In this document: piece after piece, positions 10,387 through 63,435 of the stretch | Numbering within the stretch: position 1 is the stretch's first letter | Layout of the letters: each line of letters starts with the position of its first letter | DNA from: Patescibacteria group bacterium | Lineage (GTDB): Bacteria > Patescibacteriota > Patescibacteriia > UBA10025 > JAHIVO01 | Assembly (NCBI GenBank): GCA_041660605.1 | Contig: JBAZWB010000001.1 | Span: forward strand, 137,295 to 201,294 | Length of the DNA: 64,000 nt | Direction: 5' to 3' | Made by a program: the position numbers and the translations under genes | Notes under the pieces: model-generated | Databases searched by the model: none | What the model was told of the DNA's origin: nothing | What the model saw: only the letters and a program-made list of their open reading frames with translations

Positions 10387-10477
10387 TGGTCGCCAACGGT
10401 CCGGTCTTAGCAATAAGATCGGACCGCCTTTTTTTAGTAGGTAATAAAAAGTTAAATGTTAATAGACTAATAGTATT

Positions 10478-10546
10478 ACGTTCTGCTCTATTGACCGAGA
10501 TTTCTCCGCTCCTCTTCGGCTACGCTCAGAGTCGGTCGAAATGACA
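10478..10546 (+). repeat. Solo copy of the structured repeat family (acgtt..tgct...cgagatttctcc-N-tcggtcgaaatgaca) also present at 25.3, 26.0 and 29.6 kb
   Basis: About 52 nt nearly identical to 25297-25346 and 25469-25520. Confidence 0.8.
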
Positions 10547-10612
10547 ATCGTTCAGCCATATAATAAAGGTAACTGTTTGAAAGGCACTTGTCCGGGGTAC
10601 TCCTATTATCTC

Positions 10613-15485: not shown

Positions 15486-16812
15486 ACTGGAAAAAATCGT
15501 CAGCTACGCCTTTTACCTGTTTATTTTTTTATTGCCCTGGCAGACGCGGTGGATATGGCATCAGGGTTTTCTTAACGGCGGGGCGTGGGAATACGGCACG
15601 CTCAGCCTGTACGGAGTGGATATTCTTTTTGTCCTGATATTTCTGGTTAGTATCTTTTTACCGCGGCCAAAAAAGCCGAGACACGGTGTCTTTTTAATGA
15701 TCATCGCCGGTCTAGCGCTGGTCAGTTTTATTTCCATAATTTATTCGCAGAACCGCGAAGTTTCCTGGTATTATTTCCTTAAACTGGCAGAGGCGGTACT
15801 ATTGGTTGTTTATGTTTTGCGCCAGCCGCTGCACTGGAGAAAAATAAGCCTGGCTTTTATTTCTGCCGGAGTCATCCAGGCCGTGCTGGGCATTTACCAG
15901 TTTTTTACCCAGAGCGTCTTCGCCTCCAAATGGCTGGGCATGGCCGCCCAGTCGCCTGACCAGATAGTTGGGGAGTCAGTGGTGGCCACTTCCGCCGGAC
16001 GGTGGTTGCGCGCCTACGGTTCTTTTCCGCATCCCAACATACTGGCCGGCTTCCTGGTGGTCTGCCTGATTTTTTTGATCGGCTACCTGTTCATCATCAG
16101 GGCGCATTTACGCGTCCGCGTCTGGCAGATAGTGCTGACGGTCAGCGCCTTTGTGGTGACGGCTTTCGGCTTGATTCTGACCTTTTCGCGCGCGGCCTGG
16201 CTGGTATTCGGTGTTTGCCTGCTCTTCTGCCTGCTGATCGCCTGGCTGCAGAAAAATAAATTCAGAGTGAGGATATTACTGGAGATTTTTGCCTGGCTGA
16301 TAATGCTGGCGGTTTTTAGTTATGTACAGCTGCCGGAATTGTGGCACACGCGCCTGACCGCCACTGGCCGTTTGGAAACCATGTCGTTAACGCAAAGAAC
16401 CGAGCAATATTCGCAGGCGGAAACGGTTTTGAATAAATACTGGACTTACGGCGCCGGACTGGGAAGCTACACTTATGCCCTTTATCAGAATCATTCATCG
16501 TTGGAGGCCTGGGATTATCAGCCAGTACATAATATTTACATTTTGGCAGCTGCAGAAATCGGGGTTTTTGGCGGCCTGCTGATTTTATTGTTGGCGATGG
16601 AATTTTTCCGGCAGGCTTTTGTTATTCACTGGAAAAAACTTGACGAGGACCAGTGGTTTTTCGTTTACACGATTGCTTTTTTGGCTTTGCTGCTGCTCGG
16701 GTTTTTTGACCATTATTTATGGACCATGTCATTTGGAGTGCTGTTTTTCTGGCTGATATTCGGTTTGTGGCTGAAGCGGTTGCGCAGAGTTACCGATAAA
16801 AGTCGGGATTAG
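15475..16812 (+). CDS. O-antigen ligase / Wzy-type polymerase-like polytopic membrane protein
   Basis: At least 10 TM segments; Wzy_C-like region (TFSRAAWL... and PVHNIYILAAAEIGVFGG, the H-N-x-Y-L ... E-x-G motif). Confidence 0.65.
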   Translation: MASKLEKIVSYAFYLFIFLLPWQTRWIWHQGFLNGGAWEYGTLSLYGVDILFVLIFLVSIFLPRPKKPRHGVFLMIIAGLALVSFISIIYSQNREVSWYYFLKLAEAVLLVVYVLRQPLHWRKISLAFISAGVIQAVLGIYQFFTQSVFASKWLGMAAQSPDQIVGESVVATSAGRWLRAYGSFPHPNILAGFLVVCLIFLIGYLFIIRAHLRVRVWQIVLTVSAFVVTAFGLILTFSRAAWLVFGVCLLFCLLIAWLQKNKFRVRILLEIFAWLIMLAVFSYVQLPELWHTRLTATGRLETMSLTQRTEQYSQAETVLNKYWTYGAGLGSYTYALYQNHSSLEAWDYQPVHNIYILAAAEIGVFGGLLILLLAMEFFRQAFVIHWKKLDEDQWFFVYTIAFLALLLLGFFDHYLWTMSFGVLFFWLIFGLWLKRLRRVTDKSRD

Positions 16813-16823
16813 TAATCCCGACT
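16801..16823. repeat. Palindrome AGTCGGGATTA-g-TAATCCCGACT overlapping the stop codon; a second copy lies at 18126-18148
   Basis: Perfect 11-bp arms; two copies in the window. Confidence 0.7.
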
Positions 16824-16836
16824 TAGAAAATAAAAA

Positions 16837-16880: not shown

Positions 16881-17699
16881 TTAGAGCAATTGCTCATGCT
16901 CAAATATTCGTTGAATGAAGGCGTTTTTTGTTCTCATCAATCGGGTGATAGCCACCGCTTTATCGAGGAGATTCATGCGTTTGAAGACGCCATAGGTCAT
17001 TATGGTGGCGAGATCATAGCCGATTTCGTTCGGTTCACCACCCAGGTTTTCCAGCGGATATCGTTCGCTGTAAATCGCCGTGATTATCTTCTGGATGTCT
17101 TTTTGCCTGTGAGTGTCTCCTTGGCGCCCGGCGAAGAAAAAGGCTTTGCTGATCCACTCCTCAATGGCTGACGAAAGCAATTCGCGGATATTCTTTTCCG
17201 GTCTTATTTCACTGGAATTAGTGGGATACGCACGGAAATGTTTCATCATTATAATGATGATGGCGTCTGGCAGGTCTTTCTCAAACTTGGCGCGTTGTTT
17301 GAAATAGTTATCGCGCCAGACCGCCGCAAACATAAGCGCCACAGGCAGGGCATGAATAAAATCCGTAATATCCGGTTTATTCTCTCTGTCCTTTTCCGTT
17401 CTGCCAAACGGCTTCATCAAAGTTGCCATCCAGATATCGGCAGTGACGGGATTTTCCAGCAACACAGCCAGAATAGCTCTGGCGATCACCAGAGGATTCT
17501 TGCAGTTCAGGCAGGCTTCAAGAAATTTCTTCGGTCCTTCCACGGTTTCTTGCAGAGTGCAATTGCTTAGGGCGCCGAATGTCCAGCCCAACAGGGGATC
17601 TGGAGTGGCCGCATCCATTTTTGGAAATTCAACCACAGGTGAGCTTTGGTTGACCCGGAAAGAGCCATAAAGTACCTGGCTCACTAATTGTTCGTCCAT
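16881..17699 (-). CDS. Hypothetical protein (272 aa)
   Basis: ORF only. Confidence 0.45.
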   Translation of the reverse strand: MDEQLVSQVLYGSFRVNQSSPVVEFPKMDAATPDPLLGWTFGALSNCTLQETVEGPKKFLEACLNCKNPLVIARAILAVLLENPVTADIWMATLMKPFGRTEKDRENKPDITDFIHALPVALMFAAVWRDNYFKQRAKFEKDLPDAIIIIMMKHFRAYPTNSSEIRPEKNIRELLSSAIEEWISKAFFFAGRQGDTHRQKDIQKIITAIYSERYPLENLGGEPNEIGYDLATIMTYGVFKRMNLLDKAVAITRLMRTKNAFIQRIFEHEQLL

Positions 17700-17990: not shown

Positions 17991-18125
17991 GATTTTTTCG
18001 TTGCGTCTATTTTTTAACCGTGTGAAGTCCAAATTTATTTGGGCTTACGTGTTTCTCCATATCTAAGCTAAGTCATCTCACGCTTAAGCGCGGGTAGGGC
18101 AGGCAATTAATTAGCAAACCTGCAA

Positions 18126-18148
18126 AGTCGGGATTATTAATCCCGACT
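18126..18148. repeat. Palindrome AGTCGGGATTA-t-TAATCCCGACT (second copy)
   Basis: Same element as 16801-16823. Confidence 0.7.
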
Positions 18149-22714: not shown

Positions 22715-25117
22715 ATGGCAAAAAAAATGAACAGGCAGATAAAAACAATTCTTTGGTTTAATGAAATCGGCATCAAAGATGTGCCCCTGGTTGGCGGCAA
22801 AAACGCTTCCCTGGGTGAAATGTACCGCAATCTGGTGCAGAAAGGCGTATTGGTACCCAACGGCTTCGCCATTACGGCCAGCGCTTATTTTTATTTAATA
22901 AAAGAAGCGGGCATCATGCAGCGCATACGCCAGATATTATCCGACCTGAATACCAAGAGTCTGAAAAATTTAATGGTACGCGGCGCAAAGGTTCGTCAGA
23001 CGATTTTACACGCTGAAATACCGGCGGATTTAAAACAGGAAATCGTCGTTTCCTATAGAAAATTAGAAAAAAAATACGGGAAGAACTGCGATGTAGCGGT
23101 TCGTTCTTCTGCAACAGCTGAAGATCTACCCGATGCTTCGTTCGCCGGACAGCAGGAGACCTATCTGAACATCCGCGGCGAGAAGGCACTGCTGGAAGCC
23201 TGCAAAAAATGTTTTGCCTCTTTATTTACCAACCGCGCTATTTCTTACCGCGTAGACAAAGGCTTTGACCATTTCAAAATCGGCCTGTCCATCGGCGTGC
23301 AGAAAATGGCTCGTTCGGACAAGGCCTGCTCCGGCGTGATGTTTTCCATTGATACCGAATCAGGATTTAAAAATGCAGTATTGATAAACGGTTCCTGGGG
23401 GCTAGGTGAAAATATCGTGCAGGGCGCGGTTACTCCGGATGAATTCTATATTTTCAAACCCACGCTGGATAAATACAAGCCGATTTTAACGAGAAAGCTG
23501 GGCACCAAGCTTATAAAAATGGTGTACAGCACCGGCGCGCAGCCGACTAAGAATATTCCCACTACTACCGAGGAAAGGAATAAATACGTTTTAACGGACA
23601 AGGAAATTCTACAGCTGGCCAAATGGGCGGTAGTCATTGAAAAACATTACAAAAAACCCATGGACATGGAATGGGCTAAGGATGGAGTTGATAATAAGCT
23701 TTATATTGTACAAGCGCGCCCGGAAACCGTGCAGTCCCAGCGCGACATGTCCGTTCTGGAAGAATATCAGCTGGGCAAGAAGGGGAAAGTGCTGGCAGTC
23801 GGTTCGCCGGTTGGAGCGAAGATTGGATCCGGCACTGCGCGGGTAATCTTTGACGTAAAAAATATTAGCGAATTTAAAAAAGGCGAGGTGCTAGTTACCG
23901 ATATGACGGATCCGGACTGGGAGCCGATCATGAAAATCGCCTCGGCCATTATAACTAACCGCGGCGGACGTACCTGCCACGCGGCCATCATTTCCCGCGA
24001 ACTCGGCATTCCCTGCATCGTCGGTACCGGTAACGCCACTCGCCTGATAAAAACCGGCCGCAAAGTAACCGTTTCCTGCGCCGAAGGCGAGGAAGGCTAT
24101 GTTTATGACGGCATTATGCCTTATAAAGTGAAAAGGACTAATCTGAAAAAGCTAGGCCGCCCGCGCACCAAGATTATGATGAATATCGGCACTCCGGAAA
24201 TGGCTTTCAGCCAGAGCTTCATACCGAATGACGGCGTGGGTTTGGCGCGCGAGGAATTTATCATTTCCAGCTATATCAAAATTCATCCGCAGGCTTTATT
24301 AAAATATCCAAGATTGAAAGATAAGAAAGCTGTTAAGCAGATCGCTGAACTTACCGCTATGTATAAAAATAAACCGCAATATTATGTAGATAAACTGGCC
24401 TCTGGCCTGGCCTTGATTGGCGCGGCTTTCTACCCCAAGGACGTGATTTTCCGCCTGGCTGATTTCAAATCCAATGAATATGCTAACCTTATCGGCGGCA
24501 AGGAATTTGAACCGGTAGAGGACAATCCTATGATCGGCTGGCGCGGTGCTTCCCGCTATTACGACGAGAATTACAAGGCGGCTTTCGCCCTGGAGTGCCA
24601 GGCTTTTAAGAAAGTCCGTGACGGAATGGGTCTCCATAACATCAAAGTAATGGTACCGTTCTGCCGTACGGTGGAGGAAGGCAAGAAAGTTATCGCGGAA
24701 ATGGCTAAAAACGGGCTGAAACACGGCGAAAAGGGTTTGGAAATATATGTGATGTGCGAAATACCCTCCAATGTCATTATCGCCGAGGAGTTCTGCAAAA
24801 TTTTTGATGGGTTTTCCATCGGCACCAATGATTTAACCCAGTTAACCCTGGGAGTTGACCGCGATTCAGAGCTGGTCGCCCATGTCTATGACGAACGCAA
24901 TCTGGCGGTGAAAAGGCTGGTCTCGGGAATTATCAGGGCGGGTAAAAAATATCACCGCAAGGTTGGTATCTGCGGTCAGGCGCCGTCTGATTATCCGGAA
25001 TTCGCCAGGTTTATCACCAAAGAGGGCATTGACAGTATGTCATTAAATCCTGATACGATAATTAAAACCACCATTGATATTATCAAGACGGAGAAGTCGC
25101 TGAAAAAGAGAAAATAA
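22715..25117 (+). CDS. ppsA: Phosphoenolpyruvate synthase (pyruvate, water dikinase)
   Basis: 800 aa; ATP-grasp N-terminal region, mobile phospho-His domain (GGRTCHAAIISRELGIPCIVG), PEP-utilizing C-terminal barrel. Confidence 0.9.
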   Translation: MAKKMNRQIKTILWFNEIGIKDVPLVGGKNASLGEMYRNLVQKGVLVPNGFAITASAYFYLIKEAGIMQRIRQILSDLNTKSLKNLMVRGAKVRQTILHAEIPADLKQEIVVSYRKLEKKYGKNCDVAVRSSATAEDLPDASFAGQQETYLNIRGEKALLEACKKCFASLFTNRAISYRVDKGFDHFKIGLSIGVQKMARSDKACSGVMFSIDTESGFKNAVLINGSWGLGENIVQGAVTPDEFYIFKPTLDKYKPILTRKLGTKLIKMVYSTGAQPTKNIPTTTEERNKYVLTDKEILQLAKWAVVIEKHYKKPMDMEWAKDGVDNKLYIVQARPETVQSQRDMSVLEEYQLGKKGKVLAVGSPVGAKIGSGTARVIFDVKNISEFKKGEVLVTDMTDPDWEPIMKIASAIITNRGGRTCHAAIISRELGIPCIVGTGNATRLIKTGRKVTVSCAEGEEGYVYDGIMPYKVKRTNLKKLGRPRTKIMMNIGTPEMAFSQSFIPNDGVGLAREEFIISSYIKIHPQALLKYPRLKDKKAVKQIAELTAMYKNKPQYYVDKLASGLALIGAAFYPKDVIFRLADFKSNEYANLIGGKEFEPVEDNPMIGWRGASRYYDENYKAAFALECQAFKKVRDGMGLHNIKVMVPFCRTVEEGKKVIAEMAKNGLKHGEKGLEIYVMCEIPSNVIIAEEFCKIFDGFSIGTNDLTQLTLGVDRDSELVAHVYDERNLAVKRLVSGIIRAGKKYHRKVGICGQAPSDYPEFARFITKEGIDSMSLNPDTIIKTTIDIIKTEKSLKKRK

Positions 25118-25275
25118 ATTCAGTTTAAATTTTAAACCGGTTGCTATATGGCAGCCGGTTTTTCATTTAATCCTGATGGTTTTTAGTCGTGGTTTTGTTG
25201 CAATCAGCTGTGCCTGTTGTATTGACTAAAGGTTTTAAACGGGAGGCTAGCGGAGACATATTGGTTAAAAACCGC

Positions 25276-25645
25276 TTACGTTGCTAATCTTTAATCGAGA
25301 TTTCTCCACTCCTCTTCGGCTACGCTCAGAGTCGGTCGAAATGACAGACGTTTGTTCTGGTAAAACCCTTATGACAGGCACTTACGTTTGTCGCCTCGAC
25401 CGATCCCGTCATCCTTCGGTGAGTGGTAGGAGTCCCCGTTGGACACAACTAACGTTGCTAATCTTCAACCGAGATTTCTCCGCTCCTCTTCGGCTACGCT
25501 CAGAGTCGGTCGAAGTGACACACGCCGATGGATTATCAACACCGAGCTACAAACTCAACCAACGCCTGTCACCTCGACCGAGTCACGCGGAGCGTGATGA
25601 GTGGAGAGGTCTCTGTAAATGCCACCTCACTCATTCATACCACCC
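25276..25645. repeat. Array of structured modular repeats (two tandem units containing cgagatttctcc...tcggtcgaa[a/g]tgaca plus tgtcNcctcgaccga inverted modules) that abuts and overlaps the 3' end of the GIY-YIG gene
   Basis: Internal tandem copies at 25297-25346 and 25469-25520; homologous to 10478-10546, 26015-26300 and 29569-29925. Confidence 0.8.
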
Positions 25646-25924
25646 CTCGCTCAAATCATTCCAACAGGGATTCATATTATTAATTAACCATTCTTTTTTT
25701 CCCCGTCGCCACCGTTTTATTTGTTTTTCCCTTTGTATCGCCACAAAAATATCGTCATGCACTTCGTAATACACTAGCTTGTTAACATTATACTTATTAG
25801 TAAAACCAGGATTTACTTTAGTCTTATGTTGCCAAACCCGACTTTCAAGATTTGAAGTCACCCCGACATACAAAACATTCTTTCTTTTATTAGTCAAAAT
25901 ATAAACGTAATATTGCCTTGCCAT
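25631..25924 (-). CDS. Small GIY-YIG nuclease-domain protein (YhbQ/UPF0213-like, 97 aa)
   Basis: YYVYILTN...LYVGVT..L..R..QH motif. Confidence 0.8.
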   Translation of the reverse strand: MARQYYVYILTNKRKNVLYVGVTSNLESRVWQHKTKVNPGFTNKYNVNKLVYYEVHDDIFVAIQREKQIKRWRRGKKEWLINNMNPCWNDLSEGWYE

Positions 25925-26014
25925 AATAAAAATTCCTTCCGTTTGGGGAAGGCTATGCTGTTATGCTACTACTTTTTCGAATGTTGTCAAATACTACCAG
26001 CATTTTTTATTCAA

Positions 26015-26300
26015 GCCGAGATTTCTCCACTCCCACCGCTTGCGCGGCGGTCGGTCGAAATGACAGACGTTTGTTCAGGTAAAACCCTAATGACTGGCAT
26101 TCACGCTTGTCATGTCGACCCCCTCGACTACGCCCCTTCGATAAACTCAGAGGCTACGCTCGGGGCAGGCTTTACGGAGACATCTCTGTTAATTACCACC
26201 CACGTTATTCGCCCTAATCGAGATTTCTCGACGAAGTTTACCCTGAGCATAGCCGATGTGCTCGAAGTGACAAATATGGCGGATAAAAAAAGAAACGGTT
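26015..26300. repeat. Second locus of the modular repeat family, including an inverted copy of the ccccgagcgtagcc...ggggcgtagtcgaggg module and a terminal AACGGTTGC/GCAACCGTT hairpin
   Basis: Shares cgagatttctc, tcggtcgaaatgacagacgtttgtt, gtgacaaNNtggcggataaaaa with loci B and D; one module is the reverse complement of its copy in locus D. Confidence 0.8.
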
Positions 26301-26726
26301 GCTTTCTAGGGCAACCGTTCTGTAGGTGTAAAAATCCAATACTAAAGGAAGCTATTAATCTCGGCTAGAGACTAATAGACTCCCGGACTTGGTCGTCAAG
26401 TGAACCTAGAGGGGAAAAATCTTTTCCAGTCCAGTGCTCCCTTGGTAGGGATATGTATGCCATCCCATGCAACTTTTAGCCGGGCGGCACACACTAGGCA
26501 CACAAAGCTCCTGCAGAGGAGCAGACCAATGTCCGGGAAGGATCGATGCAGCAAATTAATGTACATAGATTTCCCTCCACGGTTATTCTTCAATTAGGAT
26601 AGCAGTTGCATTTTATTTGTCAATTTTTTAACGAATTATTACTGGCAATTACGCTTGACTTAAGGCCTGGACTTTGTTAGGATTTTTTAATTAGTTCTTT
26701 GATATCATAACAAATGGAGACAGAAA

Positions 26727-29045
26727 ATGACGCAAATTGTCGGTTTCGAGTTTGAGGAAGTAGTAGTAGTCGCGGAAAGCCCACACGATATTTTTTCTCC
26801 CCAGCTGCGCAAAGCCGGCATCAAATACAAAAGATGTTCGGAACGCGAGGCGCGGGAGTTAATACTCGGAGATTCTGCGCTTATCATTGTCGTGAATTTA
26901 GGCGCTGAAAAAGTAGGCGAGCGGTTAAGAGCTCTATTTCCCCGAGCGCAGGTAGTTGTCTGTACCGGCGGCGAGAAGGTTTTTGATCCGCGGGTAGTCG
27001 TAGTGCACGGGAAAGGCGAGCATGACCTGCACCGCTTTTCCGACTGGGGAGGCTTTATCAGGCTTATTGGCCAACGGTTAAAGCCGCTGCCCAGGATTTT
27101 CACGCCGGTTCCCGGAGGGCACGACCTGTTTACTTATCTTCAGCCGGAGGAAGATGACTATGCGTACTGTCCGCAAGGGCTCAGCGACGCTTCCGGCACT
27201 ATGCTGAATATGTCCATAGTTTATCTGCGCTGGTACCGGCAGTGGCTGGAGGATGTCAGCAAAATTTCTTTTGATTGCCACTTCAGTTTTTCCGGCAAGA
27301 AAAGAAAAGTCAGGCGCGTGACGGTGCTGGTGGATGAAGTGACATTTATTCATCTTGGGCTGCCGATTTTCCACGAGGAAGACCGGGTGACATTCTTTGA
27401 CTCTGGCGGCAACGAGCACCGGGCTATTGTTGAGCGCATCGGCGATGAAGAAATGAAACTGTATTTTCCGGAAGAGTTGGACCGTTTTGTCGCGGAAGAT
27501 CTGGTTTTTTTCCAGAGAGATGTGGACAACGGCCTGATTGAGGCGCAACTGCAGCTTTGCGAGAATTTTACCACGGGCATGATTGCCAATTATTCCCTTC
27601 CCTGGCTAGTGGCTACCGGCCAGTACAGAAATCAGCAGGCTGACCCGCAAGATAGAGTTTGCTTGCCTGAACGTGAATGGCGCAGGCTGTCCCAGGACCG
27701 TTCGCAGTGTTTGGCCCTGGTTGACATGGTTGGGACGGCTAATTTGGTTTTTACCAATGGACCAGCCGGTACGGGCAAGACTTTCGTTATCTCGCAAGCC
27801 ATACCCCAAAATATCAGTCGCAGGAAAGTCACGCTAGTGCTATCCCATTCCAACAGGGGACTGGATAATATGATAGCCGCCATTGCCAAGCGGTTTACTG
27901 ATCATCGTCTTATTTATCGCCTGGGCAATAGCCAGGATAGCGTGGCTCCAGAGGCACTGCCTTTTCACCGGAGCCAGCGCTTCCGCGGTCCTGACGATAG
28001 GCCGTATCCAGAGGCACGGCAGGCTATGGAGGAGACTCGTAACATTTTGGAGCAATTAGATTTTGGCGACGGCATTGTCATTGGGTGCACCTTGACCTCG
28101 TTCTGGCTGGATAAGACGATGCTAGCTTTGCAGAAGAGCGGGATCCGGTTCCAGGTCGCTTATGTGGACGAAGCTTCGCGCTGCTATTTCTTTGAGCTGC
28201 TGCCTATCCTGCGCGCGGTGGCGGAAAAAGTCATTTTTGTCCTTGATCCCGAACAGCTGGGCAATATCGGCTTGTCTCCCCAGGCTAAGGATCACTTGGT
28301 GCAAAAAGGTTTTGAACCCGGGCAAATTGACGAATTCTTGGCAGGCTGGCCGGCCAGTGTCATTAAGAAGCGCCTGCTTAATTCCAGGATGCTGACAGTC
28401 AACAGGCGTTCCTTGCCTGTGATTTGCCGGCTGGTTAGTGAGGTTTTTTACGACGGTGAGCTTGAATCCGGACGTTTTGATCCGAATAATTCCGGGCAGG
28501 TTATTTTCTACGATACGGCCGCCGCGCAGGATAAGGGCCAGGAACGGCATCACAAATCTTTCAAGAATAGGCGTGAGGCTAATATAGCCGTTAGCTATGT
28601 TGTTAAACGCCTGGCTGCCGGCACAGCGCCAGATCAGATTGGGATTATTACTCCTTACCGGGGACAGATCGGCCTGATCCGGGGCAAGCTACGGCAAGAA
28701 TTGCTTTTTAACGACAAGCTGAAAGCGGTTCGCCAGCGGTATAACATTAACGCTGAAACTATTGATGCCATAGCCACTGCCATGGTGGATACGGTGGATG
28801 CTTTCCAGGGATCAGAGCGGACAGAGATAATCCTAAGCTTCGTCCGCTCAAATGACGAAGGCGACGTGGGTTTCAACCGCTTCGTCAACCGTTTATTGGT
28901 GGCGTTCTCGCGAGCCCGCAACCGCCTGGTGATAATCGGGGATACGCAGACTTTCCTGGCTTCGGAATTTCCAGAAGTGGTCAGGATATTCAAGCAGGTA
29001 ATTGAGTACGTGAAAAAGTATGGTACATACGTGGAGGTAAAATAA
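26727..29045 (+). CDS. Superfamily-1 helicase, Upf1/DNA2-like (AAA_11/AAA_12-type), with an unrecognised N-terminal region of about 330 aa
   Basis: Walker A FTNGPAGTGKTF, Walker B-like VDEASRC, C-terminal VDAFQGSER...NRLLVAFSRARNRLVIIGD; GC-richer than surroundings. Confidence 0.75.
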   Translation: MTQIVGFEFEEVVVVAESPHDIFSPQLRKAGIKYKRCSEREARELILGDSALIIVVNLGAEKVGERLRALFPRAQVVVCTGGEKVFDPRVVVVHGKGEHDLHRFSDWGGFIRLIGQRLKPLPRIFTPVPGGHDLFTYLQPEEDDYAYCPQGLSDASGTMLNMSIVYLRWYRQWLEDVSKISFDCHFSFSGKKRKVRRVTVLVDEVTFIHLGLPIFHEEDRVTFFDSGGNEHRAIVERIGDEEMKLYFPEELDRFVAEDLVFFQRDVDNGLIEAQLQLCENFTTGMIANYSLPWLVATGQYRNQQADPQDRVCLPEREWRRLSQDRSQCLALVDMVGTANLVFTNGPAGTGKTFVISQAIPQNISRRKVTLVLSHSNRGLDNMIAAIAKRFTDHRLIYRLGNSQDSVAPEALPFHRSQRFRGPDDRPYPEARQAMEETRNILEQLDFGDGIVIGCTLTSFWLDKTMLALQKSGIRFQVAYVDEASRCYFFELLPILRAVAEKVIFVLDPEQLGNIGLSPQAKDHLVQKGFEPGQIDEFLAGWPASVIKKRLLNSRMLTVNRRSLPVICRLVSEVFYDGELESGRFDPNNSGQVIFYDTAAAQDKGQERHHKSFKNRREANIAVSYVVKRLAAGTAPDQIGIITPYRGQIGLIRGKLRQELLFNDKLKAVRQRYNINAETIDAIATAMVDTVDAFQGSERTEIILSFVRSNDEGDVGFNRFVNRLLVAFSRARNRLVIIGDTQTFLASEFPEVVRIFKQVIEYVKKYGTYVEVK

Positions 29046-29568
29046 GTAAAAAAATAGGGTGGCTGTGGCAAACAGTCACCCTTTAGTTTTTTGGTCAGGT
29101 CCAAGCTTTATTAAATGCCTTGCAAGTTGCATATAATATTTTTGCCTATACCCCTTCGAATGCCATCAGTGAGGTAAGGAAGCCAGTTAACGTAAGCGTT
29201 AACCTAGTAAAAGGACCGGACCCCTCTTCGAACTCCACCGTGGGTCTTCGCCGTAGTCAACTGCTCATCGCCGTCATGACATATATGATAAGAAGACCAT
29301 TGGCCGTGCAACCACCTACGAATTGCACTGACCAGCTGCCTGCTCCCAGAGAGATTTTCTCTCTTGAACAGGGGCGGAATTGAAGAGGAAATGAACCCTG
29401 CTGGGACTATCCCAAAAGCGAACCTTTGAGAAAGTAGCATTAGAGAACCTCCTCCCTATTCCAGAAATGTAACCGTCCGTACACTAGGCACTGCGACTGT
29501 TACGTGCATATCTTAGCAGAATAAATAATACTGTCAAGGGATTTTTAATGAATTTGAACTCACGCGAT

Positions 29569-29925
29569 TGTCTCCTCGACCGATCCCGTCATCCGTCAGG
29601 GGAGTGGCGGGAACCTCCGTTAAACATAACTAACTTTGTTAATCTCCAAGTCGAGATTTCTCCATTCGTCCTCGTTCCACTCGGGCTCAGTCGAAATGAC
29701 ATGCGTTTTTTGACGACAAACAACACTTGATAAAACCACCCACGTCTGTCATGTCGACCGAGTTACGCGTAGCGTGATGAGCGGAGACATCTCGGTTAAA
29801 CACCACCTCAGCCAGCCCTAACCGAGATTTCTCCATTCAATCTGCCCCGAGCGTAGCCTCTGAGTTTATCGAAGGGGCGTAGTCGAAGGGCTCGAGGTGA
29901 CAAGCGTGGCGGATAAAAAGAGGCG
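29569..29925. repeat. Third large locus of the modular repeat family
   Basis: Contains tgtcNcctcgaccgatcccgtcatcc, aactaacNttgNtaatct..cgagatttctcc, tcagtcgaaatgaca and ggtgacaagcgtggcggataaaaag modules. Confidence 0.8.
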
Positions 29926-30145
29926 GCAATCGTATAAGTTCCATTGGCATGAACCCCCCTTGTTTTATAATCAAAGGGTGGTATGATATACTGATTTTAG
30001 GCATTTTTTAACAAAAAGATGCAGAGGTGAGTTTAACTACGTTTTTTAAGAAGCTGCATCTAAAGTGCAATCAAAGCGGAGAGGTCGCCCCGCCTCCGTA
30101 AAAACTCCGGCGGGGCAGGCATAGTGTAATATATTTCATCAGAAT

Positions 30146-30213
30146 GGAGGGATCGCATAGTTGGTCTAGTGCGCACGCCCCGAAGAATACTCGCTTCGCT
30201 CGTATCTACGGGG
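30146..30213 (+). pseudogene. Partial duplicate of the tRNA-Ser 5' end (29 nt, 30146-30174, 2 mismatches) fused to a CCCCG...CGCTTCGCTC...CGGGG hairpin element (30175-30213)
   Basis: ggagggatcgcatagttggtctagtgcgc versus ggaagggtcgcatagttggtctagtgcgc of the intact tRNA 90 nt downstream. Confidence 0.7.
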
Positions 30214-30267
30214 TAAACTTGGAAAGTAGTTTTTAAAAAAGCAGATATTATTTATTGGGCTCGGAGC

Positions 30268-30356
30268 GGAAGGGTCGCATAGTTGGTCTAGTGCGCTTGC
30301 TTGGAAAGCAAGTAAAGGCCAAAAGCCTTTCGCGAGTTCGAATCTCGCCCCTTCCG
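30268..30356 (+). tRNA. tRNA-Ser (anticodon GGA), type II, CCA not encoded
   Basis: Manual fold: acceptor GGAAGGG/CCCTTCC, D-arm GCAT..GTGC, anticodon stem CTTGC/GCAAG with loop TTGGAAA, variable arm AAAGGC-caaaa-GCCTTT, T-arm GCGAG-TTCGAAT-CTCGC. Confidence 0.8.
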
Positions 30357-63187: not shown

Positions 63188-63435
63188 ATGGCACAAGCCC
63201 CATACCAGAGCTCACCTTTGGCTAGCTCCCATCGGGCCTGAGCCCTCAGGGCCGAAGGCAGGGTCATATGGTACGGGGTTAAAGAGCGGTAAAATGGCTT
63301 TTATACGATTATAAAAAGATTAAGTAAATAGATAAGCAATGGCACAGGATAATATCGACCCCGCACCAAAGCTCCCCTTCGACTCCGCTCCTTCAACAAG
63401 TTCAGGAGCTTCGCTCAGGGTCGCTTGATGCGGGG
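63188..63435 (+). repeat. Two decayed duplicates of the dnaG 5' end (63188-63197, 10 nt; 63339-63358, 20 nt), each fused to a CCCC...GGGG hairpin element (63198-63278; 63359-63435)
   Basis: atggcacaag / atggcacaggataatatcga versus the true start atggcacaagataatatcga at 63493; element 2 contains the CTTCGCTC core. Confidence 0.7.

Follow-up and report, generated by a model that had tools for sequence, protein, structure and literature searches.

The subject of this report is a family of short repeats in a 64,000-nt stretch of DNA, hereafter the window, from a Patescibacteria group bacterium (GenBank assembly GCA_041660605.1, contig JBAZWB010000001.1, positions 137,295 to 201,294 of the forward strand; in ENA, ERZ27249449 k141_609689). 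Most copies are grouped in two arrays of alternating orientation (array 1, 25295-26275; array 2, 29569-29902), and a solo copy is situated at 10495-10549. Array 1 surrounds a gene encoding a 97-aa GIY-YIG nuclease, and a helicase gene lies between the two arrays. As argued below, the repeats are very probably the hairpins recognised by this nuclease, which would make the locus a member of the published Ssn system. The features concerned are given in the following list. Hairpins are entered there as putative SRMs, a name explained below, and their strand is that on which the motif reads 5′-TGTC-stem-GA...GA-stem′-CTC. R1 is a covariance model built from alignment A2, which contains 51 sequences, and 'strict' refers to the coordinates from a strict scan.

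10495..10549 (strict scan 10498-10546), minus strand: solo putative SRM hairpin, intergenic, upstream of uvrA; stem ATTTC/GAAAT; R1 50.6 bits, E 3e-12
25295..25349 (strict 25298-25346), minus strand: putative SRM, first intact copy of array 1; R1 53.1 bits, E 6e-13
25389..25437, plus strand: degenerate putative SRM, TGTC head (1 mismatch) and TCGACCGA retained, foot stem weak
25469..25523 (strict 25472-25520), minus strand: putative SRM, stem ATTTC/GAAGT with one G-T wobble; R1 46 bits, E 6e-11
25564..25615 (strict 25567-25612), plus strand: putative SRM, 3′ flank of the nuclease gene, compensated stem ACCTC/GAGGT; R1 53.2 bits, E 6e-13
25631..25924, minus strand: ssn-like gene for a 97-aa single-domain GIY-YIG nuclease, in the spacer between two inverted putative SRMs; Pfam GIY-YIG E 1.3e-17
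25963..25990, minus strand: promoter-like site TTGACA-16-TAGCAT, upstream of the nuclease gene and within the hairpin-bounded cassette
26016..26068 (strict 26019-26065), minus strand: putative SRM, 5′ flank of the nuclease gene; R1 60.1 bits, E 6e-15, the best match
26108..26185, plus strand: long putative SRM of 78 nt (strict scan), stem ATGTC/GACAT, with a nested, oppositely oriented loop hairpin (26120-26165 by R1)
26218..26275 (strict 26221-26272), minus strand: putative SRM, last of array 1, followed by the tail TGGCGGATAAAAA; R1 34.3 bits, E 1e-07
26727..29045, plus strand: SF1 helicase gene with MkoA-like core, between the two arrays; Pfam AAA_11/AAA_12, PADLOC MkoA E 2.5e-57
29569..29618, plus strand: degenerate putative SRM, first element of array 2 (self-BLAST and head word)
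29651..29704 (strict 29654-29701), minus strand: putative SRM, identical in sequence to an arm at 9820-9867 of contig L121; R1 51.4 bits
29744..29795 (strict 29747-29792), plus strand: putative SRM, compensated stem ATGTC/GACAT; R1 53.7 bits, E 4e-13
29825..29902, minus strand: long putative SRM (strict scan) with nested hairpin, inverted twin of 26108-26185 (inverted repeat, 88% over 90 nt), followed by the tail TGGCGGATAAAAA

The reality of the repeats is apparent from a sensitive self-BLAST of positions 25100-30100 against the window, which gave E values of about 1e-39 to 1e-15. Positions 29565-29810 match 25385-25629 (74% over 248 nt, E 2e-39), an alignment that contains the two degenerate copies, themselves ~74% identical. 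Positions 10476-10552 match 25276-25352 (88%, E 5e-17), and 26102-26191 and 29819-29908 form the inverted 90-nt pair (E 3e-22). Short words are also overrepresented. The word CGAGATTTCTC, with at most one mismatch, occurs 9 times against 0.95 expected, and TCGARRTGACA 13 times against 2.8 expected; neither count was reached in any of 100 shuffles.

The initial annotation had described a modular repeat family at four loci, and all four do contain the words that it named. The modules are not separate, however: they are parts of one hairpin motif that occurs in both orientations. Modules taken for reverse complements of others are copies of this hairpin in opposite orientation, and the units of up to ~180 bp are two oppositely oriented hairpins plus their spacer. 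Similarly, the module ccccgagcgtagcc...ggggcgtagtcgaggg, reported in opposite orientations in loci C and D, is indeed found on opposite strands, and corresponds to a single 78-nt hairpin variant with a nested inner hairpin (26108-26185 and 29825-29902). The supposed overlap of the repeats with the end of the GIY-YIG gene disappears on inspection, as the hairpin at 25564-25615 stops 16 nt before the stop codon (25631-25633). The statement that the family is not a CRISPR array holds, given the alternating orientation, the lengths of 46 to 78 nt and the lack of cas genes among the ORFs (open reading frames) scanned.

On its TGTC strand, the hairpin consists of TGTC, a 5-nt stem (mostly ATTTC), GA, a variable G+C-rich hairpin, GA, the second stem half (GAAAT) and CTC(G); the other strand reads (C)GAG, 5-nt stem, TC, S, variable part, S′, TC, complementary stem, GACA. 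Ten intact copies were obtained in the strict scan, and with the 2 degenerate ones the 64-kb window holds 12, all of them extragenic; another 20 kb of the same sample holds 6. The ten strict copies have AG-stem-TC...TC-stem′-GACA in common, with stems ATTTC/GAAAT, ATGTC/GACAT and ACCTC/GAGGT. TGTC is present in 12 of 12 copies. Of the 10 strict copies, all open the stem with an A-T pair, and 9 have T-A as the next pair. At positions -5 to -3 relative to TGTC, CG is found in nine of ten window copies, eight of which have ACG. Gaps within the arrays measure 42-46 nt between hairpins placed head-to-head and 32-35 nt between those placed tail-to-tail, and both arrays finish with the same tail. The long copy at 26108-26185 has a 26-nt insertion relative to its homolog in L121, which is another contig of the same sample. 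A single hairpin of 150 nt per unit, as proposed by RNAfold, was rejected because the compensated stems ATGTC/GACAT and ACCTC/GAGGT pair within an arm and would mismatch between arms. A further hairpin of broadly this type, though weak and degenerate, was noted at 63375-63420 (R1 18 bits, E 0.006; CCCCT-TC...TC-AGGGT), within a larger inverted repeat directly upstream of a dnaG-like gene.

The nuclease gene (25631-25924) lies exactly inside the spacer of the inverted doublet formed by the hairpins at 25564-25615 and 26016-26068. The GIY-YIG domain, at residues 4-75, is the sole domain of its product, which also gives a weak match to TIGR01453 (E 4e-5). There are 5633 homologs, and the catalytic-type residues Y8, Y19, R29, H33, E66 and N85 are invariant in 39 of them. 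Contig L121 encodes a paralog 93% identical to the window protein (BLASTP; the L121 gene model has 84 aa), which is bracketed in the same way, as is the gene of locus L075 (59% aa identity). The L121 array, L-R-L-gene-R-L-R, is homologous to that of the window (75% over 796 nt); conservation is visibly higher in the gene than in the hairpins. The L121 cassette also has TTGACA at the position matching the promoter-like site of the window.

This arrangement resembles one described for Neisseria. Chenal et al. (2025, Nat Commun; PMC11893778) reported that SsnA, a 94-aa single-domain GIY-YIG protein (cd10448; NMV_0044 in N. meningitidis), is encoded between two hairpins (NTS-ssnA-NTS). These hairpins are called NTS (CGTCATTCCCGCGMAVGCGGGAATCYRG) or, generally, SRM, and SRMs were found near 71% of the homolog genes and on both sides of 42%. 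SsnA binds the folded single strand and cuts only single-stranded DNA (ssDNA), upstream of the hairpin; it acts on neither duplex DNA, RNA nor the reverse strand, and does not bind RNA. It modulates natural transformation, and the authors favour domestication, with an effect on transformation rather than on transposition (PMC11893778). A related class of repeats was defined by Di Nocera et al. (2013; PMC3733652), namely the CGTC-tagged superfamily of repetitive extragenic palindromes (REPs), in which the tag is often TGTC, stems begin with A-T/T-A and dimers are common. It includes Neisseria dRS3 and Rickettsia RPE-4/-6, and no transposase is known for it (PMC3733652).

The association of hairpin and gene was assessed in 80 metagenomic homolog loci, picked by protein similarity alone. 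An R1 hairpin was found within 200 nt of the gene in 41 of these loci, on both sides in 23 and as an inverted bracket in 13. Hairpin density was 2.86 per kb near the gene vs 0.16 per kb beyond it, a difference of ~17-fold. The canonical NTS, CGTCATTCCCGCG[A/C]A[A/G]GCGGGAATCCAG, as found with the published SRM pattern, flanks nine of the 80 homolog genes; in L195 the NTS-gene-NTS layout is perfect. One of the nine proteins, whose gene has a canonical NTS on both sides, shares 52% identity (E 2e-36) with that of the window. In a neighbour-joining tree, all nine NTS-flanked proteins cluster in one clade, while proteins associated with GA-interrupted hairpins, including that of the window, are found elsewhere. 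The hairpin class therefore appears to track the nuclease phylogeny, a pattern that would fit an enzyme recognising the hairpin and not the variable spacer.

At least some of the homolog loci that lack an R1 match carry a third hairpin class, TGTCATTGCGAG...GAAGCAATCTC. This class, (C/T)GTCATTGCGAG...GAAGCAATCTC, borders the genes of GIY-YIG homologs that form a group apart (L151, L153, L165, L175, L181, L184 and L188), and was missed by both the strict scan and the published SRM pattern. Gene calls over the repeats were also observed. A public annotation places a 141-aa hypothetical protein over array 1 (window 25943-26368; 9506-9931 in L120), which looks like a spurious ORF of repeat sequence, and in L180 the frame that is open 5′ of the ssn ORF continues through copies of the canonical NTS, with a peptide of the CHSRAGGNP type.

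The distribution of the hairpin was determined by scanning species-representative genomes with the pattern CGAGATTTCTC-N20-50-TCGAARTGACA. The initial annotation had suggested that copies confined to this island might be decaying duplications. No such confinement was found: in addition to the second locus of the same sample, the pattern is present in at least 119 genome stretches, against an estimated ~4 chance matches. The hosts comprise Planctomycetota, Chloroflexota, Bacteroidota, Ignavibacteriae, Clostridia, Coriobacteriia, Synergistaceae and Proteobacteria, and often many contigs of one genome are involved. In the 119 listed loci, to which the counts of stems, closing pairs and doublets given here refer, 73 non-canonical stems are fully paired, vs a shuffle mean of 20.7 and maximum of 30. 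They include ATTCC/GGAAT, GTCTC/GAGAC, ATCTC/GAGAT and ATCCT/AGGAT. The closing pair alternates between G/C (162) and C/G (130). Alignment A2 contains compensatory changes in all 13 proposed pairs, and 87.9% of its cells are paired, vs ~40% with slid partners. That the stem is held by compensatory changes argues that the folded form of the hairpin is under selection.

Model R1 recovers eight of the window copies (E 1e-7 to 6e-15), together with the nested inner hairpins of both long copies. The consensus fold, read on the TGTC strand, has a 5-bp stem followed by tandem G-A/G-A mismatches, a clamp of 1-2 bp, a second GA/GA loop and a variable G+C hairpin, with nested copies in some cases. When 252 hairpins were evaluated with DNA energy parameters, the TGTC strand had the more stable fold in 190 (Wilcoxon p 4e-19), which is consistent with recognition of that single strand. 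The commonest layout is an inverted, tail-to-tail doublet with a spacer of 7-36 nt (93, vs 34 of the opposite arrangement). In a Planctomycetota metagenome-assembled genome (MAG), CSMAG_1261 (L001, L032, L038, L055, L066, L084 and L092), the doublet occupies the core of a repeat that measures ~170 nt and has a terminal inverted repeat of its own, GTACGTGTTTAGCG ... CGCTAAACAGGTAC, at which homology stops sharply in 6-7 copies, in the manner of a MITE, a transposable element of the miniature inverted-repeat type. Among 2.9 million viral contigs, the hairpin motif had no match and the ssn-like gene only 12.

The pairing of gene and hairpin in other genomes, the existence of NTS-flanked homologs and the 52% identity to one of them led to the filing of the window locus as an Ssn/SRM pair. 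The window repeats are thus, very probably, SRMs: REP-type hairpins with a TGTC/CGTC tag that would serve as the cognate recognition elements of the adjacent 97-aa Ssn-family nuclease. Features common to the window and the published NTS/SRM system are a single-domain GIY-YIG protein of ~95 aa, a gene between two inverted hairpins, further gene-less copies, apparently many, that are mostly extragenic and clustered around particular genes, a directional (C/T)GTC head, a stem with A-T/T-A as its first pairs, a short tail, and a hairpin class that co-varies with the protein clade. Differences are the hairpin length (28-108 nt for the window class, vs 28 nt), the 5-bp stem with its GA/GA interruptions and nesting, the tail (CTC(G), vs CYRG/CCA) and the Patescibacteria host, a member of the Candidate Phyla Radiation (CPR). 

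The CGTC-tagged REPs (PMC3733652) likewise have in common with the window hairpins an unpaired CGTC/TGTC tag, A-T then T-A as first pairs, inverted dimers, an extragenic location, a wide phylogenetic spread and the lack of a tyrosine transposase, none being found among the window ORFs scanned. The window hairpins nonetheless lack the uninterrupted 8-9 bp stem, the 4-5 nt loop and the CCA tail of types CGTC-1 to -4, and head-to-head dimers predominate among these REPs, whereas tail-to-tail doublets predominate in the window class. REP/REPIN-RAYT systems also contain inverted hairpin doublets with a short spacer in many copies, a partner gene between two inverted repeats and an implied recognition of a folded single strand. 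Their partner is of the HUH/Y1 type rather than GIY-YIG and their tag is GTAG rather than TGTC, and REPINs are lineage-specific, whereas the window hairpin family is strongly conserved in sequence across phyla. Elements of the IS200/IS605 family and the palindrome-associated elements derived from them have sub-terminal hairpins that are recognised as ssDNA and cut at a short adjacent site. The window unit differs in having no TnpA/TnpB and symmetric ends.

A mechanism may be proposed by analogy with the enzymes of Neisseria, N. elongata, N. wadsworthii and Wolbachia, from which it is inferred. When DNA becomes single-stranded, during replication, transformation or repair, the strand reading 5′-TGTC-ATTTC-GA... 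would fold, and the Ssn protein would bind the folded hairpin and nick a few nt 5′ of the TGTC head, leaving duplex DNA, RNA and the opposite strand alone. The conserved ACG at -5 to -3 would occupy the nick position in this genome, and the conserved CG/ACG may thus represent the region corresponding to that cut by the Neisseria enzyme. Paired and solo copies would be non-autonomous relatives of the SRM-ssn-SRM unit, as REPINs are to RAYT genes.

Several observations weigh against this assignment. The published SRM pattern, HGTCWYN(0-2)YYVSBRHN(0-5)WNVSBRGN(0-2)RNCYNB, has no match in the window and matched 0 of 297 hairpins, so that membership rests on architecture and protein homology and not on the published motif. 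The protein link to SsnA and cd10448, moreover, is indirect and runs through homology to an NTS-flanked protein; a search seeded with that NTS-flanked protein returned no named Neisseria protein among its best 120 matches. About half of the 80 homolog loci have no R1 hairpin, and the G-T wobbles in three window copies become A-C mismatches on the TGTC strand, the one that is proposed to be recognised.

It was of interest to compare the window with a relative, L203, whose PEP synthase is 77% identical. Synteny is conserved in L203, with no hairpins in 18 kb, and the gap between the PEP synthase gene and tRNA-Ser is 650 nt there vs 5.1 kb in the window. To judge from these two sequences, the block of SRMs, ssn gene and helicase gene (~25170-29970) is an insertion specific to the lineage of the window, placed between the PEP synthase gene and tRNA-Ser. 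The origin of the gene-less doublets by internal deletion of the cassette was also considered, and is partly supported only: the spacers of the window doublets match the 3′ end of the cassette over their own 3′ part (p about 0.001-0.002), but their 5′ part is unlike the cassette in three of four tests.

The initial annotation offered a MITE-like element, small RNA genes and recombination or inversion sites as possible identities. The resemblance to small DNA repeats of the REP/MITE type is genuine, as is the link to a GIY-YIG gene, but actual mobility is doubtful. Such mobility would mean that SRM-ssn-SRM is an autonomous unit, similar to an insertion sequence and mobilised by the GIY-YIG nuclease, whose doublets are MITE/REPIN-like deletion derivatives inserting into single-stranded hairpin loops. 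This is a functional claim, compatible with the Ssn/SRM assignment. It would account for the homologous L-R-L-ssn-R-L-R arrays at two unrelated loci of one sample, the absence of the block from the relative, the occurrence of Ssn homologs of up to ~60% aa identity, and of identical hairpin words, across Planctomycetota, Chloroflexota, Bacteroidota, Clostridia, Coriobacteriia and Proteobacteria, the hairpins nested within hairpin loops, the sharply bounded ~170-nt unit of the Planctomycetota MAG, the match of the 3′ spacer part to the cassette end, and the many homologs situated on very short contigs, as is typical of repeats. On the other hand, neither a target-site duplication nor a strain-level empty/filled site was seen, the 5′ spacer part mostly fails to match, strand transfer by GIY-YIG enzymes is not known, the motif is absent from the viral contigs and the gene rare there, and domestication is favoured for the Neisseria system (PMC11893778). 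The more specific proposition that the GA-interrupted hairpins and the Ssn clade constitute a self-propagating element, of which doublets and nested copies are non-autonomous offspring placed in single-stranded hairpin loops, is somewhat less probable still. If it were true, REPIN-like transposition would for the first time be driven by a nuclease of this fold, here a bare 97-aa GIY-YIG domain, and horizontal transfer would have distributed it among bacterial phyla, CPR included. 

A free-standing homing endonuclease would be a selfish GIY-YIG gene that homes into the spacer of an independent family of doublets. The gene is always within the spacer between two inverted hairpins, gene-less doublets are far commoner (93 in the listed loci), and GIY-YIG is a classic homing-endonuclease fold, to which the weak TIGR01453 match may be added. 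This possibility is nevertheless improbable: the 97-aa protein is a catalytic core with no further DNA-binding domain, the hairpin class tracks the nuclease phylogeny (nine NTS-flanked proteins in one clade), spacers are not conserved between genomes, and the published relatives cut ssDNA beside the hairpin rather than duplex spacers (PMC11893778). A role at the RNA level, of the kind that has been suggested for many REPs, is more improbable again; the hairpins would then stabilise mRNA, serve as terminators or be small RNAs. The structure is conserved by covariation, wobbles on the GAGA-reading strand would be tolerated only in RNA or ssDNA, all copies are extragenic, and many REPs have been argued to be transcribed (PMC3733652). 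Against this, the orientation alternates and there is no U tract; Rfam yielded no family, whether the window was searched at gathering score or 25100-30300 with E values of up to 5; as DNA, the strand bearing tandem G-A mismatches has the greater stability; the hairpins associate with a DNase gene and not with gene ends in general; and SsnA does not bind RNA (PMC11893778). Least credible of all are decaying segmental duplications without function. Two copies are degenerate (25389-25437 and 29569-29618), and both arrays and that of L121 are homologous as whole blocks, but the cross-phylum conservation of the motif, far above the ~4 chance matches, the frequent compensatory changes in the stem and the enrichment specifically beside Ssn genes already contradict that explanation. 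Two further candidates were rejected. A hammerhead-like interpretation of GAUGAG/CGAAA was dismissed by hand, as a G occupies the would-be H17 position and the interpretation conflicts with the TCGGTCGA/TCGACCGA pairing. Integron attC sites, and recombination or inversion sites in general, were discarded since no RAYT, Y1_Tnp, other transposase, recombinase or integrase was found among the 28 ORFs scanned with Pfam, of 56 of at least 120 aa.

The remaining contents of the inserted block and its surroundings may be described briefly. The helicase gene (26727-29045) encodes an SF1 protein of 772 aa, the core of which is matched by the Mokosh MkoA helicase model and the N-terminal 320 aa of which have no Pfam match. 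Its position, bracketed by both arrays, recalls the NTS clusters around selected Neisseria genes. The helicase was rejected as the hairpin partner, as tblastn found no helicase homolog in the 119 listed repeat loci. Two candidate structured RNA genes were noted, both on the minus strand. One (26293-26590), between array 1 and the helicase gene, has a promoter-like site at 26623-26596 and an intrinsic terminator at 26320-26293, and its fold has an energy of -117.2 kcal/mol (z -6.96) vs -101.2 (z -4.01) for the plus strand. The other (29050-29505), between the helicase terminator and array 2, has a promoter-like site at 29537-29510 and energies of -158.4 kcal/mol (z -3.79) vs -133.9 (z -2.99). 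The word GUGCCUAGUGU is common to both; neither has an Rfam family or a homolog in the fetched loci.

Positions 30146-30174, where the inserted block has its edge, are a copy of the 5′ half of tRNA-Ser(GGA), identical at 27 of 29 positions to 30268-30296 and located 120 nt upstream of the intact tRNA. Recombination or integration may have left this copy as a scar. No such half copy stood out in the upstream region of L203, which was read by eye without a dedicated search. The segment from tRNA-Ser to DnaG measures about 33 kb in the window vs about 1.2 kb in L203, and contains a single ORF of 6677 aa (33379-53412) with many internal repeats of ~1.3 kb period (families D1-D20). A perfect 24-nt palindrome, AGTCGGGATTAGTAATCCCGACTT, which is unrelated to the hairpin family, occurs at 16801-16824 and 18125-18148, 1.3 kb apart and flanking the ORF at 16881-17699. 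In L121, a 23S_rRNA_IVP (four-helix-bundle) gene at 131-499 lies between A+T-rich inverted repeats (TAATTCATAATT...), and looks like another small gene boxed in by inverted repeats.

The repeat family reported at this locus is therefore confirmed as an observation, and its best explanation is a system published in 2025. The window locus is very probably a member of the known Ssn system and largely explained, so that its novelty is limited to a new member with a divergent hairpin class in a CPR host. On this reading, what had appeared to be a complex modular repeat becomes a defined pair of nuclease and hairpin, and the Ssn system is placed in a Patescibacteria genome. A large, cross-phylum class of hairpins, with an interrupted stem, tandem G-A mismatches and extended or nested apices, is invisible to the published SRM pattern, so that the number of Ssn partners is underestimated in surveys that rely on it. 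Recognition of the motif also cleans annotation, as gene callers turn such arrays into spurious hypothetical proteins. Finally, each distinct pair of hairpin and enzyme is a candidate site-specific ssDNA cutter of new specificity, and as such is of biotechnological interest.

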